Source: Fibrobacteria bacterium (GTDB lineage Bacteria > Fibrobacterota > Fibrobacteria > UBA11236). From it: a DNA stretch of 16,181 nt. Where the stretch lies: positions 1 to 16,181 of the forward strand of contig JAYTHY010000013.1 of NCBI GenBank assembly GCA_043732185.1, given 5' to 3'. Made by a program: the position numbers and the translations under genes. How positions within the stretch are numbered: the stretch's first letter is position 1; every line of letters begins with the position of its first letter. The notes under the pieces are model-generated. The model searched no databases and was not told the origin of the DNA. It saw only the letters and a list, made by a program, of their open reading frames with translations. This document shows, piece by piece, positions 5,096 through 16,098 of the stretch.

Positions 5096-5187
5096 AGGAA
5101 AATAATACCTATTTTATCGGATTAAACCGAGAAATAACTGATAATGTTGCGGTTACAGCCTCAATTAACCGGTTTCTGTGAAAATTA

Positions 5188-5271
5188 TGCCTGAGAGGAG
5201 AGTCGAACTCCTACATCCTTGCGGACACAAGAACCTGAATCTTGCGTGTCTACCAATTCCACCACCCAGGC
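5188..5271 (-). tRNA. tRNA-Leu (anticodon CAG)
   Basis: Minus strand reads GCCTGGGTGGTGGAATTGGTAGACACGCAAGATTCAGGTTCTTGTGTCCGCAAGGATGTAGGAGTTCGACTCTCCTCTCAGGCA. Acceptor stem GCCTGGG/CTCAGGC, anticodon arm CAAGA-TTCAGGT-TCTTG, long variable arm, GTTCGA T-loop, discriminator A. CCA is not encoded. Confidence 0.97.
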
Positions 5272-5308
5272 GCGGTATCCACGTCCAAAGGACGGGAGGT
5301 GGCTCGGA

Positions 5309-5337
5309 AAGATGGGAAAATCCAGGTCCAATGTCAA
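5309..5337 (-). promoter_or_regulatory. Putative sigma-70 promoter of tRNA-Leu
   Basis: Minus strand TTGACA (5337-5332), 17 nt, CATCTT (5314-5309), followed by GC-rich TCCGAGCC, about 37 nt before the tRNA. Confidence 0.55.
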
Positions 5338-9270: not shown

Positions 9271-9375
9271 GACATAGTTATAATTATGAGCGAAACGCGC
9301 CGAATACAAAATTCTGCAAAATTGTCCTTGAAGTTTGCTTACTTTATCCTCTCTATTGGTATCACTTTAAAATAA

Positions 9376-11322
9376 TTATTACAATTTCTTAATGCGTCTC
9401 CCCTCAAGTCGATTTCTCTACTTTTAGGATTTAGAACCATTTCCATTCCATTTCTCAATCGATTACATCTGAACCGCGCAAGTTTTCCTTTCCTTCTCTT
9501 CTGGCTTTCCACCTACTTCAACCTATCCCACAACTCCCAAACTCAAGAAACTGCCCTTGCCTTAATAGTCACCCTACTAGCCTTCCTCCTCGGTTACGTT
9601 CGCATATCCGTTTTTCATCCTGGCATAACCACTCCGCTTATTCTCCTTTGCGTCGGCGCAGGAGTATACAATCTCGTAACCTTTTCTCCAGCAGTTCCCT
9701 TTTTCGGAGACAAAAACGTCTACAGTGGCATTTTGGTATTGGGCGCCTTTTACCATTTTTTCTTGATGGAAAACGGAGGCACTCATAAGCCTGTCCAGGT
9801 CCTTTTATACTCCTCCACATTGGTCGTGCTCGCCTCCCTTTTATTTGTGGATTCCCGCATTGCCCAGGGAGCCTTCATTCTCAGCTTCCTGCCCCTCCTT
9901 TTTGTAACCGTACGATTGGATGGAAAAGAGCCCAAGTTGGAAAAACTTGCGTGGACCACTGGCATAACCTTGTGCTTAGGACTTGCATGGATCAATTTGC
10001 CTGATGCGCGGTTTCATCAGATCGGCCAAGCTCTCGCCCCTTCCTCACCAAATTTTATTGGGAGTAATTGGGTGTCCGGTTGGGAAGCGTTTAAGACGTC
10101 TCCAATATTCGGTTCCGGCACTGGCAGTTTCCGTTTTGCAATTCTGGATCACCAAGCCTCCTGGCCATTTCCTACCGGAGACGGGAATATTCCAAAAGTG
10201 GTACACGCCCAAAACCACTATTTGGAAACCCTAATTGAAGGAGGACTCTTTGGTTTAGGACTGGAATTGATCCTGCTATTCGGAGCATGGTTCGGCCTGG
10301 CTAGAGTTTATTTCACCGAGTCCCGGCTCACAGTCAAGTATATTTTTTTCGCATTGCTCGCACTTTTTATTATGGCTCAGTTTTCATCCATATTAGAAAG
10401 CGCGCCGACGAAAGTCGCCTATTGGGCCTGCGTGGGTTATGGCTGGTCCTTTATTGTTTGGGGGCGACCATGGCCACGATATGCCACTCTTGTATTGGGA
10501 AGCGCTATTCTGCTCCTATGCACCATACACCTGTACTTGCGCATCCCGGAGTTGCGTTCGGATCACCAACTGGCATTGGCCGTGCCCTTGGCCGATACCA
10601 ATCCCAAAGCCTACACCGAACACCTGTCTGAAGCGCTTCGCCTAAAGCCGCACAATGAGTCCGCTTGTTATCGTTACGCGGAAGTGCTGGGAAAATTCCA
10701 TAGAGAAAAAGAAGCCGTCCATTGGATCGAATTCATTCAAACCTTTGCGCCAGATTCAAATCAGCGCTCGATATACCTTTCCAAGATCTATTATTCGTTG
10801 GGCCGGTTCGATTCTGCTGCCAAATATGCTTCCTATAAATTGGAAAAAAGACTGACGGATTTGCCGAATCTGGAAATGCTGATCCGATCCTGGAAGCATC
10901 AAGGAAATTGCAAATCCATTGATTCCATACAAGTGGCTTTGGCATCCTTGCCGAAATCCTACCACATACCGGCGTCCCAGGAATATACCGTAGAGGGCCT
11001 CAATAATCTATTCCGATCCAACCGTGAAATTTTATTTCTGCAACGTTGGTTTGGAGGTCAAGCGTCACGGCGCGCATTTATAGAAGGCCGCTTGCTCACC
11101 TACAATCGCCAATTCGAAAACCACCGCAAGTTAAACAAATTATTGCAAACACCCTGTTCAGATTCTTTGCCGTTACTGCCTGTGCCTGCTGAAAATCCTA
11201 CCCCGCCGCATTGGAAGTTCAGGGGCTGGGGTAACCTGACTATTCCAAAAAATAATCCAAAAATGTTTTATGCTACTTTGCGCCGTTTCACAGCTAGTTC
11301 ATGTAGCAATTCCCCAATATAG
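9376..11322 (+). CDS. O-antigen ligase (Wzy_C)/oligosaccharyltransferase-like membrane protein with TPR-like C-terminus. 5' end disrupted or non-canonical, possible pseudogene
   Basis: The frame is open from 9376, well upstream of the track's TTG at 9733, and encodes further TM helices and FFGDKNVYSGIL. Wzy_C motifs W..GWEAFKTSPIFGSGTGSF and HAQNHYLETLIEGGLFGL. True start is uncertain (see findings). Confidence 0.75.
   Translation, partial: LLQFLNASPLKSISLLLGFRTISIPFLNRLHLNRASFPFLLFWLSTYFNLSHNSQTQETALALIVTLLAFLLGYVRISVFHPGITTPLILLCVGAGVYNLVTFSPAVPFFGDKNVYSGILVLGAFYHFFLMENGGTHKPVQVLLYSSTLVVLASLLFVDSRIAQGAFILSFLPLLFVTVRLDGKEPKLEKLAWTTGITLCLGLAWINLPDARFHQIGQALAPSSPNFIGSNWVSGWEAFKTSPIFGSGTGSFRFAILDHQASWPFPTGDGNIPKVVHAQNHYLETLIEGGLFGLGLELILLFGAWFGLARVYFTESRLTVKYIFFALLALFIMAQFSSILESAPTKVAYWACVGYGWSFIVWGRPWPRYATLVLGSAILLLCTIHLYLRIPELRSDHQLALAVPLADTNPKAYTEHLSEALRLKPHNESACYRYAEVLGKFHREKEAVHWIEFIQTFAPDSNQRSIYLSKIYYSLGRFDSAAKYASYKLEKRLTDLPNLEMLIRSWKHQGNCKSIDSIQVALASLPKSYHIPASQEYTVEGLNNLFRSNREILFLQRWFGGQASRRAFIEGRLLTYNRQFENHRKLNKLLQTPCSDSLPLLPVPAENPTPPHWKFRGWGNLTIPKNNPKMFYATLRRFTASSCSNSPI
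11192..11252 (+). repeat. Direct repeat copy 1 (61 bp, within the 3' end of the ligase gene)
   Basis: 55/61 identical to 11738-11798. The 32-bp core CGCCGCATTGGAAGTTCAGGGGCTGGGGTAAC (11204-11235) is identical. Confidence 0.95.
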
Positions 11323-11534
11323 GTTTGGTATCTTTTTCCGGATTTAATCGCGATATCTTTAATTGCTTTCAAGTCGTTTCCGTTTATTCTAATGGTTATG
11401 ATTTTATCCTTTGCCAATGTTGCCCTGGCAGCCTCTCGGTATACATCTTTTTCATTTTTAGACAACTTTACCACCTCAAAATGACCTTTTTTGATGGCCT
11501 CTTTAATTTCTTTTTCAAATTTTGTCGGTTTCAT
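11268..11534 (-). CDS. CopG/BrnA-like ribbon-helix-helix antitoxin
   Basis: EKEIKEAIKKGHF...YREAARATLAKDKIITIRINGNDLKAIK..A...GKRYQTYIGELLH, typical of antitoxins encoded after BrnT-like toxins. Starts 1 nt after the stop of the toxin-like ORF. Confidence 0.85.
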   Translation of the reverse strand: MKPTKFEKEIKEAIKKGHFEVVKLSKNEKDVYREAARATLAKDKIITIRINGNDLKAIKDIAIKSGKRYQTYIGELLHELAVKRRKVA

Positions 11535-11535
11535 A

Positions 11536-11700
11536 TTAATCCTTTTCGTAAATCGTGATTAAAAAAATCGCGTCTTTTCCTTCTTTGAATGGGACTACCC
11601 AGAGTTTTCCATTCAGTTTCACCATGAAACATTTTTGACCAATGTGGTTTTTGCTTTTCAATTTTAGGTTTTTGCCTAGGTTCCATTTGAAAATCTTCAT
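11536..11700 (-). pseudogene. BrnT-like toxin, 54 aa, apparently internally deleted (absent from the ORF track)
   Basis: Manual translation: MKIFKWNLGKNLKLKSKNHIGQKCFMVKLNGKLWVVPFKEGKDAIFLITIYEKD*. It has the family start (F.W...KN..LK) and end (GQK...VPF......FL.TI) but lacks the central RGISFE-type segment. Confidence 0.75.
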
Positions 11701-11704
11701 TGAG

Positions 11705-11734
11705 ATAATATAAATACTTTGTATTTACAATCAA
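11705..11734 (-). promoter_or_regulatory. Promoter/operator of the BrnT-like TA module
   Basis: Minus strand TTGATT, 16-18 nt, TATATT/TATTAT just before the ATG at 11700. The spacer contains the inverted repeat TAAATAC-ttt-GTATTTA (11711-11727). Confidence 0.6.
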
Positions 11735-11737
11735 GTT

Positions 11738-11798
11738 AAAATCCTTCCTCGCCGCATTGGAAGTTCAGGGGCTGGGGTAACGTGACTCTACCAATAAA
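11738..11798 (+). repeat. Direct repeat copy 2 (61 bp)
   Basis: Offset exactly 546 bp from copy 1. Identical core at 11750-11781. Confidence 0.95.
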
Positions 11799-11831
11799 AC
11801 GGCAATTTAAAGGCATTTTATTGACTTTTAC

Positions 11832-11875
11832 CTGACTTTAGGGTAATTTGTCCTTATCATTAAGGACAAATTACC
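11832..11875 (+). promoter_or_regulatory. Promoter and palindromic operator of the Xre-RES module
   Basis: CTGACT (11832-11837), 17 nt, TATCAT (11855-11860). Perfect 15-bp inverted repeat GGTAATTTGTCCTTA-tcat-TAAGGACAAATTACC (11842-11875) covering the -10 and the AAGGA RBS. Confidence 0.8.
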
Positions 11876-11876
11876 T

Positions 11877-12371
11877 ATGTCAATAATTAAAAAAAAGTCC
11901 AAAGTACCGAACCGCAAGGAAAGGTCAGGCAGCGTTACTAAATCGAATCTCGGGCCTAAGCGAGACAGCACTCGATCTCAAAAAGGAGCCACAATTGCGC
12001 CTATTTTCAACGAAGGACAAGGTTTAAATAAAGACAATAATCCTTTCCAGGTAATAAAAGACCTCTCGGCGGATTTTGGATTTTCCGCAAAAGACATGGC
12101 GGGCGTTTTGGATGTGACTCCTAAAACATTTTCGAGATGGAAGCAAAAGGCTAACGGTATGTCTGATCAACAAGCAGATCGCATGCTGATCCTGAAATCG
12201 ATTTTTGAATTGAGCAGAAAGGTTCTAGGCTCGGATGCAAATGTAAAAAAATGGATGAGTGAACCTGTTTTTTTACTTGATGGGCATGCTCCCTTGAGCC
12301 TTTTGATAACTGAATCCGGAAGACGACGGATCGAATCGGTTTTGCACCAAATAGAATATGGGTTTTTCTGA
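11877..12371 (+). CDS. Xre/MbcA/ParS-family antitoxin
   Basis: HTH (MAGVLDVTPKTFSRWK), QADR, VLGS...KKWMSEP...LDGHAPLSLL.TESG...IESVL.QIEYG. Abuts the RES gene. Confidence 0.9.
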   Translation: MSIIKKKSKVPNRKERSGSVTKSNLGPKRDSTRSQKGATIAPIFNEGQGLNKDNNPFQVIKDLSADFGFSAKDMAGVLDVTPKTFSRWKQKANGMSDQQADRMLILKSIFELSRKVLGSDANVKKWMSEPVFLLDGHAPLSLLITESGRRRIESVLHQIEYGFF

Positions 12372-12824
12372 GTGGCCAGTCTTTTTCGTGTATCGAGAAA
12401 AGCATACCTACCTCAGGATCCAAACGGTGGTTATCACTCAGAGGGTCGATGGCATCCGATGGGAAATCCTGTACTTTACTTCTGTTCATCGCTACCAATG
12501 TGCATTTTTGAACTTCGTGCTAACAAAGTCGAGTTTGATATCATTAGAACCGGATATCATTTCAGCCGATGTGAAGCTGATCTCGCCTCCTCTTTGGAAG
12601 TCGTGCCAGACTCGTTCTACACCCAGGAATGGACGACCAATAAGGCAGCATCTCAAAAACTTGGTGAAAAATGGCTCAATTCGAATCGCACACTATTCCT
12701 GGCGGTGAAGAGCGCCCCTTTGCCAACGGAAACAAATTACATCATCAACCCATTACATCCTAAATTTTCTCAGCTTACCTTTACAATTCCTAAACCTATA
12801 CCACTTGACCTTCGAGTCACTTGA
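12372..12824 (+). CDS. RES-domain toxin (NAD+ phosphorylase/ParT-MbcT family)
   Basis: LFRV, GG...EGRWHPMG.PVLY.CSS....IFE, SQKLGEKW, LAVKSA....ETNYIINPLHP. The R, E and S residues are present. GTG start. Confidence 0.92.
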   Translation: MASLFRVSRKAYLPQDPNGGYHSEGRWHPMGNPVLYFCSSLPMCIFELRANKVEFDIIRTGYHFSRCEADLASSLEVVPDSFYTQEWTTNKAASQKLGEKWLNSNRTLFLAVKSAPLPTETNYIINPLHPKFSQLTFTIPKPIPLDLRVT

Positions 12825-13395
12825 CACTGGTGCGAAACCAGGTAGGTAGATTTTCAGCTAGGAAAGTTTTTCGACCATGGTCGAATACCGCGACCTTACG
12901 GAAAGGTTGGTCCAAATCATTATTGTCGAATATCCAAACATGTGGCAAAACGTCGATGGCTGCCTTCAGGTTCTTCATCGTCCTGGGGTAGCGCGATTTA
13001 AGTTTTTCCGTGGGGACATCATGTCCGCCTCTGGAAACTCGCATGGACACACGTTCCTCTGAGACGTCAGCACTGGATATGCCGATGAAGCAAAGTACGA
13101 CCGTATAACCTTTGGCTGCGGAATCCAAAAGAAATAAAAGCTTGTCACCTACCGGATCGGAAAAAACGGTTTCGAAGGCAAAACTCTCTTTTGATTCCAC
13201 TAACTGTAGGCGAATATCCCCTGCCATTTTGGCCGCGGTATAAGGATCTAGGTTCATTGATCTGGAGAGGTGATCCACATTGATAAAATGCAGTCCTGCA
13301 TGGCTGACATGAACTTGAAAAAAGGTGGTCTTCCCTGCGCCGTTAGGTCCCGCTATGGCAACGATAATCGGTCGCTGATCCAGTTGGCTACTCAT
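12817..13395 (-). CDS. Zeta-toxin-like P-loop kinase/ATPase
   Basis: IAGPNGAGKTT, FINVD, SFAFETVFS, RVSMRVSRGGHDVP, IFDN. Start placed at ATG 13395 (the track's 13446 lies inside the antitoxin gene). 8-bp convergent overlap with the RES gene. Confidence 0.88.
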   Translation of the reverse strand: MSSQLDQRPIIVAIAGPNGAGKTTFFQVHVSHAGLHFINVDHLSRSMNLDPYTAAKMAGDIRLQLVESKESFAFETVFSDPVGDKLLFLLDSAAKGYTVVLCFIGISSADVSEERVSMRVSRGGHDVPTEKLKSRYPRTMKNLKAAIDVLPHVWIFDNNDLDQPFRKVAVFDHGRKTFLAENLPTWFRTSVK

Positions 13396-13417
13396 TTCAG
13401 CCGATTTCGAACTTGCG

Positions 13418-13792
13418 TTATGCTTGGACTTCAGGCCTGAATTCACGATTTACAAATCGGCCCAATGTCCGAGATCCATCTTCGGAAATGCGAACCAACA
13501 ACCCGTTCTTTCCAGGCTCGGACTTATAATGAGGAAAAGGTTGCGTATCTAGAAAACTCTGAAGTCGCTCGCGCCCTGAAGGAGTATCTACGGTTTCCAA
13601 AATCTCTCCAAAGGATTGAATGGAACCGCTTCGACAGAGGGCCAATACTTGAGAGCCTTGTAAGAACGGTTCAACAGCTCTACCGAGGCTGGCCCAAAAC
13701 TCAACCTGTCCAGCAATGGACCGGTGGACGGACTCGCCCATCAAACGCGCTTGGAGAACAAGAGGATCGGACAGCTTTACGGGTTGGCTCAT
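13418..13792 (-). CDS. ParD-like family antitoxin
   Basis: MSQPVKLSDPLV..AR.......RSIAGQVEFWASLGRAVE is the ParD_like signature. It lies upstream of the zeta-like gene, a common pairing. Confidence 0.85.
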   Translation of the reverse strand: MSQPVKLSDPLVLQARLMGESVHRSIAGQVEFWASLGRAVEPFLQGSQVLALCRSGSIQSFGEILETVDTPSGRERLQSFLDTQPFPHYKSEPGKNGLLVRISEDGSRTLGRFVNREFRPEVQA

Positions 13793-13794
13793 AC

Positions 13795-13828
13795 CCTTTA
13801 TGGTAGCATTTTGCTACCATAAAGGCAA
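13795..13828 (-). promoter_or_regulatory. Promoter and palindromic operator of the ParD-like/zeta module
   Basis: Perfect 14-bp inverted repeat CCTTTATGGTAGCA-ttt-TGCTACCATAAAGG (13795-13825). Minus strand TTGCCT, 17 nt, TACCAT (with extended TG), 7 nt before the ATG. Confidence 0.8.
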
Positions 13829-13838
13829 GTTATTTGAG

Positions 13839-14072
13839 TTATTTGGTGCTTTGCCCGGATTTTATTCGTCTTAATTCCACGACATCCGCCAAATCCTTGG
13901 GCCGATTTGCCGCTAATTTACTTTTAATCAAATCAGTCTTGCAGATCACCTTTACGCCGATTCCATCCAACTTTAATACGACTTTTCTCCGGTAACACGA
14001 TTCGCTGACCTTATTCGAATGGAGAAACTTCAAAAATTCTTTGTACTCTGCCGGTAGTTGCCTTTCGGCCAT
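13839..14072 (-). pseudogene. Nucleotidyltransferase-family (TA-type) gene with a large apparent in-frame internal deletion
   Basis: The 77-aa ORF joins the family N-terminus (LPAEYKEFLKFLHSNKV) directly to its C-terminus (ESCY.......LDG..V.VI...DLIKSK.AANRPKDLADVVEL). The central GG.A...T.D.D catalytic region is absent. Confidence 0.72.
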
Positions 14073-14533: not shown

Positions 14534-16098
14534 GTTCATCTCCCGCTTTCGACGCAGCCGATCTCGCCCAACTGATCTCCGTGGGCATCACCGAAAAAAT
14601 GGCTTTGGCACAAAGGGATATTTTTTTACAGGGACCGAAATATCCTTGCTTAAATCGACCCGCAACTCTTGGAGACGGAATTGTAGCGCTTTCTGATTCA
14701 GATCGAGTTGGCTTTAATCTCGAATATCGCGAGGCTGCCGAACAAGGTCGCGTACTTGAATTTATTCCCGCGTCCGGTGCCGCCACCCGTATGTTCAAGG
14801 CTTTGATTTCCATTTTGGGACGGACAGATAGGCCTGCTTTATCTCGATTGCAGCAAGAAGCGAAAGACCTAGGAAGTGAAGCGCCAGACACTCAGGAATT
14901 TTTGGAATGGTTTCATGGATTGGAAAATTTCGCCCTCCGGAAACCGCTGGAAGACGCTTTGCATAAGCAGGGCATGGACTTGCGGGATTTAATAAAGGCC
15001 GGTGCCTATCGGCCCATTCTGGAAACTCTTTTGACCAAGCAGGGGCTGGGGTATGCGGGTTTGCCCAAAGCTTTGATCCCTTTTCACGACCACCCAAGTG
15101 GACCCCAAACCGCCTTGGCCGAACACCTCGCAGAAGCAGCATTGCTGGTTGGAAATTCTCAGGGCGTATGCCGACTGCATTTCACCGTTTCTCCTGATCA
15201 TGAAGCCATGGTTCAGACCCTGCTGAATTCATTGATCCCAAAATACGCTTCGGAAGGCATCCACTTCGAGGTGCACCTCTCGCAACAAAAGCGAAACACC
15301 GATTGCTTGTCCATGGAAGAGGGAGGCACTTTCATACGAAACCCAGACGGTACTCTGGTGTTGCGCCCTGGCGGCCATGGAGCGTTGCTGGAAAATCTCC
15401 AAGATACCAAGGGAGATGTGGTATTTATCAAGAACATTGACAACCTGGTGCCCGCAAGGCTGAGAGAAGAAGTATTAAACCATCGTCAAGCCTTGGGCGG
15501 TTATTTGATTCGCTTGCAGAAACAAGTTTTCACTTATCTACACCACATCCAAAAGGAACCCGGGTCGGCACTCGTGCAGGAGATGGCTGATTTCGCGGAG
15601 CAAAACTTGGGGGTCAAGTTGCCGGAGATCAAAACAGTCGGTGAAAGATCCGCTTACTTGCAACAGGTTTTCGCTCGTCCTCTACGCGTCTGTGCCATGG
15701 TTGAAAATCAGGGTGAGCCTGGGGGTGGCCCTTTCTGGGTACAGAATCCGGATGGCTCGCAAAGCTTGCAGATAGTGGAGTCTGCCCAAGTGAACAAATC
15801 AAATCCGGACCAGAAAAAAATCGTGGCAGCAGCCACCCACTTCAATCCGGTGGACATGGTATGCGGCCTTAAAAATCATCGCGGCGAACTTTTTAATTTG
15901 GCGGAATACGTGGACGGGGATGCCTATTTCATCACGACCAAATCCAAGGATGGCAAGGCTGTCAAGGCGTTGGAACTGCCTGGACTTTGGAATGGATCCA
16001 TGGCGAATTGGAATACAGCATTTGTCGAGGCTCCCGGCGTGACGTTCAACCCCGTGAAGACCGTCACGGATCTTTTACGTCATAGCCACACAGCTTAA
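14530..16098 (+). CDS. DUF4301 family protein (sugar-nucleotide pyrophosphorylase-like fold)
   Basis: FIPASGAATRMFK, LPKALIPFH, LHFTVSPDH, RPGGHGALLENL, FIKNIDN, RPLRVCAMVENQGEPGGGPFWV, THFNPVD, LELPGLWNGSMANWNT, FNPVKTVTDLLR. Start is either GTG 14581 or more likely CTG 14530. Confidence 0.92.
   Translation: MSSSPAFDAADLAQLISVGITEKMALAQRDIFLQGPKYPCLNRPATLGDGIVALSDSDRVGFNLEYREAAEQGRVLEFIPASGAATRMFKALISILGRTDRPALSRLQQEAKDLGSEAPDTQEFLEWFHGLENFALRKPLEDALHKQGMDLRDLIKAGAYRPILETLLTKQGLGYAGLPKALIPFHDHPSGPQTALAEHLAEAALLVGNSQGVCRLHFTVSPDHEAMVQTLLNSLIPKYASEGIHFEVHLSQQKRNTDCLSMEEGGTFIRNPDGTLVLRPGGHGALLENLQDTKGDVVFIKNIDNLVPARLREEVLNHRQALGGYLIRLQKQVFTYLHHIQKEPGSALVQEMADFAEQNLGVKLPEIKTVGERSAYLQQVFARPLRVCAMVENQGEPGGGPFWVQNPDGSQSLQIVESAQVNKSNPDQKKIVAAATHFNPVDMVCGLKNHRGELFNLAEYVDGDAYFITTKSKDGKAVKALELPGLWNGSMANWNTAFVEAPGVTFNPVKTVTDLLRHSHTA

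Follow-up and report, generated by a model that had tools for sequence, protein, structure and literature searches.

A BrnT/BrnA-like toxin–antitoxin remnant between two copies of a ligase gene end in a Fibrobacteria bacterium: a probable insertion with long target duplication

The window analyzed here, 16,181 nucleotides of contig JAYTHY010000013.1 of a Fibrobacteria bacterium (assembly GCA_043732185.1; the source genome, G000), carries a small toxin–antitoxin (TA) pair at the 3′ end of an O-antigen-ligase-family gene, enclosed by two direct copies of 61 bp of that gene end. The repeats, at 11192-11252 and 11738-11798, are identical at 55/61 bases. Mismatches fall at repeat positions 9, 12, 45, 51, 53 and 58, so that 32 bp in a row are perfect. 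Alignment and BLAST confirm both the repeats and the 32-bp core claimed in a preliminary description, which had been made from the sequence alone and had taken the two copies for the ends of a site-specifically integrated element. The features on which the argument depends are the following.

9286..11322, plus strand: frame of the host gene, an O-antigen-ligase-family (Wzy_C) and TPR protein (Pfam PF04932, E 1e-8)
11192..11252, plus strand: copy 1 of the duplicated target, coding for the conserved terminal RGWG; the reading frame continues into the insert
11204..11235, plus strand (11750-11781 in copy 2): the 32-bp perfect run common to both copies
11253..11737, no strand assigned: the insert, 485 bp, 33% G+C, missing from the corresponding site in the sister genome G008
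11268..11534, minus strand: an 88-aa BrnA/CopG-like antitoxin, full length (Pfam PF14384, E 0.006, below cut-off)
11536..11700, minus strand: a 54-aa remnant of a BrnT-like toxin, from which 75 bp have been deleted in frame at 11655/11656
11707..11734, minus strand: the predicted sigma-70-type promoter of the TA pair, a consensus match only
11719-11730: a 12-bp palindrome within the predicted promoter, a possible operator
11738..11798, plus strand: copy 2 of the duplicated target, non-coding
11799..11835, plus strand: the displaced former host-gene tail to its TGA, matching the tail in G008
11842..12824, plus strand: an Xre-RES unit, the older neighbor, which lies directly behind the single copy in G008

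The 4.46-Mb genome held two copies of the repeat only (BLAST E 3e-15), the remainder being chance matches of 13-18 nt. The repeat is protein-coding sequence, has no Rfam match and is not a tRNA end. Two candidates for a further copy were discarded: a 14-bp match within DUF4301 (15040-15053) is at chance level (E 0.66), and a supposed third, decayed ligase end between RES and DUF4301 reached a local alignment score of 21, against a shuffled mean of 19.7 and maximum of 28. The G+C content of the insert, 33%, compares with 47% in the host gene and 49% in the genome, and its non-coding room comes to 15 nt and 37 nt; as had been described, the antitoxin stop lies 15 nt from copy 1 and the −35 box 3 nt from copy 2. 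The earlier translations of both copies are right, but copy 2 is not an open frame, as an in-frame TAA precedes it, and the reported 546 bp is the spacing of the repeats rather than the size of the insert. That this spacing equals 182 codons had been given weight. In sequencing runs X5, X6, X7 and X9, from other strains, one extra base at 11258 brings the spacing to 547 bp, which makes the 182-codon spacing a coincidence, and only 4 of 12 repeat spacings are divisible by three; we therefore rejected in-frame spacing as a functional feature. To judge from the same extra base, the host-gene tail behind RGWG appears to be under no constraint.

The enclosed pair resembles BrnT/BrnA (PF04365/PF14384) in its toxin-first, two-gene operon and in the matches of its homologues to the BrnT_toxin and BrnA/CopG models; it differs in that both window proteins score below the Pfam cut-offs and in that the window toxin lacks 25 further residues. 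Full-length antitoxin homologues are 64-72% identical, and antitoxin homologues were found in 24 of 61 genomes, the source genome included. PF04365 is matched by 9/15 members of the toxin family (best E 1e-9), although not by the window toxin itself. Atlas neighbors are named BrnT family toxin, which is a lead, and a PDB sequence search returned only designed repeat proteins and weak matches, with no related solved structure. The window toxin, shorter by a third, has 54 aa, compared with 78-95 aa in 14 homologues; the 25-residue block that is gone is present in all 14 of these aligned sequences and contains the family's conserved RG-x-x-FE stretch. In the nearest homologue, short TGAA matches flank the segment that corresponds to the 75-bp deletion. 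Run X8 (study P5) bridges the deletion, and X9 has lost 21 further bases there. A second, C-terminal deletion was ruled out, since close homologues end at the same place. One TA pair does lie between the repeats, as first described, but not an intact operon: with 25 internal residues gone, here and in other strains, the toxin is probably dead and the module probably an orphan antitoxin. A sequence resembling the promoter of the pair also precedes homologous pairs, which sit at unrelated sites, and their DNA homology begins a few bases from the −35 box, at what is here the start of the insert. Two further observations concern the family. A short BrnT-like subfamily (78-83 aa; L054, L025, L057, L028, L047 and L030) stops short of the C-terminal SRK stretch that longer members have, and the closest homologous pair (L024, genome G019), whose toxin is frameshifted, lies beside another BrnT/BrnA-like pair and attC-like sequences recognized by eye.

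The site without its insert is seen in G008, where a single repeat copy is followed by a tail like that of copy 2 and then by Xre-RES. The single-copy allele that the preliminary description proposed to look for thus exists, and its flanks are correct on both sides: the left flank of the G008 copy matches that of copy 1 at 39/60 positions versus 16/60 for copy 2, and the 60 nt after it match the flank of copy 2 at 44/60 versus 14/60 for copy 1. The two copies agree with the G008 allele at 45/61 and 44/61 positions and with one another at 55/61. Because they are closer to each other than to G008, the duplication should postdate the split of the alleles, unless conversion has reset its apparent age, and an insertion in the source lineage is the simpler reading of these sequences. 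Genome G002 (78% complete) gave no match to the locus, and a metagenome scan with the ligase end yielded two distant loci, both without a cassette at the gene end. Among 15 orthologous loci scanned, none (0/15) had a second repeat or other cargo at the ligase end, so that the alternative cargo that might have been expected between two repeats in relatives did not appear. The gene after the ligase is GT2 or DUF4301 in the three loci where it was identified by Pfam.

The suspicion that copy 2 is a misassembly draws on two facts, namely that no single contig spans the whole structure and that the assembly of the source run is interrupted at the 32-bp core. We examined 8 of 12 listed sequencing runs, all as contigs built from 31-letter words. 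The copies differ at six positions, and in X1, the possible source run, the depth of the insert (9.6) is close to that of the flanks (11.2 and 12.4), with the 32-bp core, at a depth of 32, forming one unitig. The junction of copy 1 with the insert is bridged in X6 (study P3), in X7 and X9 (P4) and in X5 (P1, another strain), and that of the insert with copy 2 in X4 and X5 (P1; 125 bases with 9 differences), which have lost most of Xre-RES past copy 2 (joint 11777 to 12651). Since the cassette and its junctions are also present in related strains from other studies, the structure is very likely real, and we consider an assembly artefact next to impossible. The empty-site joint (11252 to 11799) was found in none of the eight runs, in which cover of copy 2 is thin and of which the source run cannot show such a joint. 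The depths in X1 reveal no excess of circles and are compatible with a minority of empty sites.

In the preliminary description, the repeats were attL and attR of an integrase acting in trans, which would have moved either a minimal cassette or some larger element of which the cassette is the collapsed remnant, and the core was possibly an undescribed attachment site. This proposal makes sense of the position of the target at a gene 3′ end and of the perfect 32-bp run, which has p about 0.03 given six mismatches, a post hoc figure. The genome also encodes seven tyrosine recombinases (PF00589) and has, at site C14, a classical tRNA-end repeat of 25 bp. Tyrosine-recombinase islands, as portrayed in the relevant passages of PMC2853133, likewise have direct repeats of 45-60 bp at a gene 3′ end and a single copy at the empty site. 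Unlike those islands, however, the locus studied here has no integrase nearby and does not involve a tRNA, its site is not reused, and the element fails to restore the gene's tail or stop. The seven tyrosine recombinases and two DDE_Tnp_1 matches (PF01609) all lie on other contigs. In agreement with the earlier reading, no integrase or transposase was recognized by Pfam in the 20 open reading frames (ORFs) of the window, where the Xre antitoxin gave a sub-threshold HTH_Tnp_1 match, and no mobility genes were found near the insert in a search that took PF00589 and PF01609 genome-wide and did not extend to serine and other recombinase families. Viral contigs matched neither the 32-bp core nor the antitoxin alignment, and the repeat was unmatched in phage and plasmid records; a 41-bp phage match within the TA part (E 5e-3) was taken as chance. 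The five informative sites fit one crossover, which speaks for the proposal, but if the crossover is placed inside the 32-bp run, two of the five disagree, although the empty allele is about 25% diverged. Collapse of a larger element would moreover have had to leave no more than 15 nt and 3 nt beside the TA unit at its two ends, and the orthologous loci, with neither a second repeat nor other cargo, offer no trace of it. Nor does the insert have the marks of an integron cassette or a non-autonomous transposon: no attC was recognized in the cassette, the region being unlike the genome's multi-copy attC-like repeats, and its ends, compared for terminal inverted repeats, score 5, which is also the commonest score among random pairs. 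Apart from the 32 perfect base pairs, there is no positive evidence for mobilization by an integrase in trans, and we regard the attachment-site explanation as improbable.

A genome-wide scan of G000 bears on the same question, as the layout recurs there with unrelated repeats of 28-192 bp.

C15: 150-bp repeat, addiction-module pair
C19: 74-bp repeat, host stop codon included; also a second case, with 69 bp
C26: 192-bp repeat at the end of mfd, by reading of the sequence
C117: 110-bp repeat
C118: 46-bp repeat
C66: 38-bp repeat, PIN pair
C101: 41-bp repeat, 3.6 kb from a tyrosine recombinase
C63: 28-bp repeat
C89: 37-bp repeat

C101 may be a different case. The repeats at these sites are unrelated to the 61-bp repeat and to one another, and one layout with mutually unrelated repeats would not be the product of one site-specific recombinase; the attL/attR pair with its undescribed core is thus not borne out. 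Five recurrent sites were compared against five relatives. At C19 and C26, G002 as well as G008 shows a clean empty site, and the inserts, of 4.1 kb (L062:1626-5759) and 3.9 kb (L063:1801-5861), hold ordinary genes. The C15 insert (L061:1821-2973), a pair between the 150-bp copies of a host-gene end, is also in G002; G008 has a single copy at this site, but with unrelated genes behind it. The layout at C66 is common to G000 and G008, and C118 is single-copy in G002 and G008, followed by other TA genes. An addiction-module insert with a 178-bp repeat (L108:1786-2913) is found only in G002, and G000 has the empty site. This G002 pair is nested in an older PIN TA insert. Separately, the gap behind a sugar-transferase gene (L066, L105 and L106) is a TA hot spot, occupied by a different TA set in each of G000, G002 and G008.

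Comparison of these inserts also speaks to a transposase of the IS1634/IS1549 kind that might have moved the unit in trans. Such elements, in the relevant passages of PMC2266710, produce repeats of 8-514 bp, and the length and variability of their target duplications recall those seen here; G000 also has the two DDE_Tnp_1 matches. Their duplications, however, flank a transposase gene with terminal inverted repeats, and neither is present here. No motif was shared among 12 repeats or among 26 insert ends, and in 0/13 inserts did terminal inverted repeats rise above random scores. We therefore consider a transposase very improbable.

The association of this layout with TA genes was estimated after paralogue and intragenic repeats had been dropped, which kept 35 of 196 repeat pairs; pairs with two copies only were then merged into 11 bracketed regions, C26 and C118 being excluded from this enrichment set with three hits each. 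The 11 regions span 26,163 bp, or 0.59% of the genome, and contain 7 of the 27 toxin-type genes of a partial census and 32 of 3,766 crudely called ORFs. With the index case left out, a toxin-type gene occurs in 4 of 10 regions versus 0.13 expected under uniform placement, an enrichment that is overstated because TA genes cluster in variable islands. It also has limits in that 20 of the 27 toxin-type genes are unbracketed and several bracketed inserts hold ordinary genes.

A footprint of this kind has been published for restriction-modification (RM) genes. The passages of Furuta 2010 (PMC2853133) that deal with it specify a repeat >30 bp around an insert <20 kb that is free of mobile genes, together with an empty site, select for cargo with R and M genes, and give cases with repeats of 59/64 and 57/64 (Table 3), often spanning a start or stop codon. 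At the ligase locus the repeat is 61 bp long with 55 identical bases; the insert, at 485 bp, carries no mobility gene within the scope stated above; the repeat is neither multi-copy nor a tRNA end; and in G008 the site is empty, with a single copy and homologous sequence to its left and right, the allele being the divergent one of a sister species. The likeness extends to a small, selfish-type cargo without mobility genes, to a direct repeat >30 bp that is unique in the genome and aligns with a single empty-site copy, to imperfect copies of similar size, to the position of the repeat at a gene end and to the fusion or changed tail of the target. The differences are that the host is an uncultured Fibrobacteria bacterium with its empty site in a sister species, and that the cargo is a type II TA pair with no known DNA-cutting activity rather than R and M genes, so that we file the locus by its type of rearrangement. 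As far as sequence can tell, the locus is by all structural criteria a member of the published insertion class, with TA cargo in place of RM genes. In the same source, the authors suspected DNA breakage or the cargo's own DNA cutting as the cause; as the cargo here has no known DNA-cutting activity, restriction cleavage by the cargo need not be what brings the footprint about. In its relevant passages, PMC3874152 names this route for RM systems and not for TA. We found no literature evidently describing TA pairs with a long target duplication, which is weak evidence, given that few subscription journals were covered.

We propose that the TA pair probably entered without an integrase, by a joining event that copied the target on both sides, that is, as an insertion with long target duplication; we infer the joining mechanism itself. 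Before the event, the gene end led directly into Xre-RES, which is the arrangement in G008. Based on its 33% G+C and on homologues at unrelated sites, a promoter-to-stop unit would then have arrived horizontally, possibly by DNA uptake, as ComEC is present. Its ends may have been joined, independently of sequence, to chromosome positions 61 bp apart, for instance when a break was repaired by extension on the sister chromosome, which would leave the copies identical at birth. Events at gene ends would be expected to survive, because copy 1 keeps the conserved RGWG terminus. The copies have since drifted to 90% identity and the toxin has lost its 75 bp, and local conversion may keep the middle of the copies identical, with the probable orphan antitoxin now having little means to excise.

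Several points weigh against this proposal. The joining chemistry is likewise our inference, and the closest homologues are only about 70-75% identical in DNA. The empty allele of G008 is divergent, being that of a sister species (73% across the ligase, 87% across Xre-RES and 98% on the side of DUF4301). No Ku was found in G000, which leaves classical end-joining unavailable as the enzyme. Other antitoxin-family loci rarely share the layout: 36 were scanned, of which 29 were distinct (one was the window's own and six repeated earlier loci), with one of the 29 giving no antitoxin match. Only 4 of the 29 are bracketed by a repeat of at least 20 bp (20-43 bp), and none of these four repeats is related to the 61-bp repeat. 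Finally, the five informative positions (1,1,1,2,2) are all compatible with one crossover, and random drift would leave 32 bp in a row perfect with p about 0.03; together, these lean weakly toward a recombination model.

In such a model, the TA pair arrived on a circle or linear fragment, already joined to the ligase end of a related strain, and was integrated by a RecA-type crossover, so that the copies were different alleles from the start; the published footprint class would be the same. Beside the pattern n11122, which fits one crossover, it can call on the presence of ComEC, on one copy of the G002 insert that is identical to the G000 allele at 178/178 positions, and on a ligase locus that has evidently been exchanged (76% aa identity to G008, versus 97-99% for three other tested genes and 82-87% for two). 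However, homology-anchored entry requires an earlier insertion in the donor, and a ligase plus TA allele without copy 2 was found in 0/8 runs, whose cover is patchy. The other sites also fit it poorly. At C26 and C15, differences between the copies and the empty allele are interleaved, with 6-8 and 3 violations, respectively, of the single-crossover pattern, which is what duplication and later drift would produce, and the C19 copies match each other at 73/74 positions and G002 at 71-72, both holding G000-specific states. At C15, two states are common to both G000 copies and absent from both G002 copies and from G008, a pattern that suggests conversion between the copies after insertion; conversion of this kind would be a plain cause for perfect runs. 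We thus consider homology-anchored entry rather unlikely, if the strongest competitor to the insertion with long target duplication that we favor.

The host gene lies downstream of two type IV pilin genes. Its frame has 678 codons, and the G008 orthologue has 679 aa. Copy 1 is indeed the coding 3′ end of this gene, as first described, but the frame carries an in-frame TAA at codon 30 (9373-9375) after the ATG at 9286; both sides of this codon align with the G008 orthologue, and a nonsense lesion and a consensus error are both possible. The longest ORF from a common start codon runs over 9733-11322. Matches to the ligase were found in 19 of the 61 genomes searched, 12 of 14 within the genus. 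RGWG (11221-11232) is a conserved C-terminal motif of the family, and the stop follows it directly in 9 of the 12 genus orthologues; the remaining three are the G008 orthologue, one that a contig end cuts off and one with bases masked close to its end. Judging from the identities to G008 given above, the pilin-ligase locus looks as if it has been exchanged between lineages or is under diversifying selection.

Between the ligase and DUF4301 lies a slot with the following features, beginning with the parts of the Xre-RES unit.

11842-11875: operator-like palindrome, part of the Xre-RES unit
11877-12371, plus strand: Xre/MbcA antitoxin
12372-12824, plus strand: RES toxin
12817..14072, minus strand: accessory genes of the same slot, by Pfam, partly deleted in G008, X3 and X4
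12817-13446, minus strand: Zeta-like AAA
13418-13792, minus strand: ParD-like
13839-14072, minus strand: DUF6036 fragment

The slot, with its Xre-RES unit, Zeta-like/ParD-like pair and DUF6036 fragment, has been deleted differently in G008, X3, X4 and X5. Elsewhere in the window, 5185-5337 on the minus strand resembles a tRNA gene, as judged by eye from the translation only.

Taken alone, this is an ordinary locus with a toxin that looks dead; its interest comes from the set of loci to which it belongs. Duplication of a gene end does not in itself make an attachment site. For the movement of chromosomal TA pairs without mobility genes, the source genome offers several dated examples of one footprint (copies 80-99% identical), with and without TA cargo. 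It is conceivable, though we hold it doubtful, that bare TA operons in this Fibrobacteria lineage are mobile in their own right, entering with long target duplications, leaving by recombination as small circles that carry the landing site and re-entering empty alleles after uptake. Were that so, the ‘virus-like’ cycle proposed for RM genes would operate here without a DNA-cutting cargo, and it would point to an undescribed joining activity of the host.

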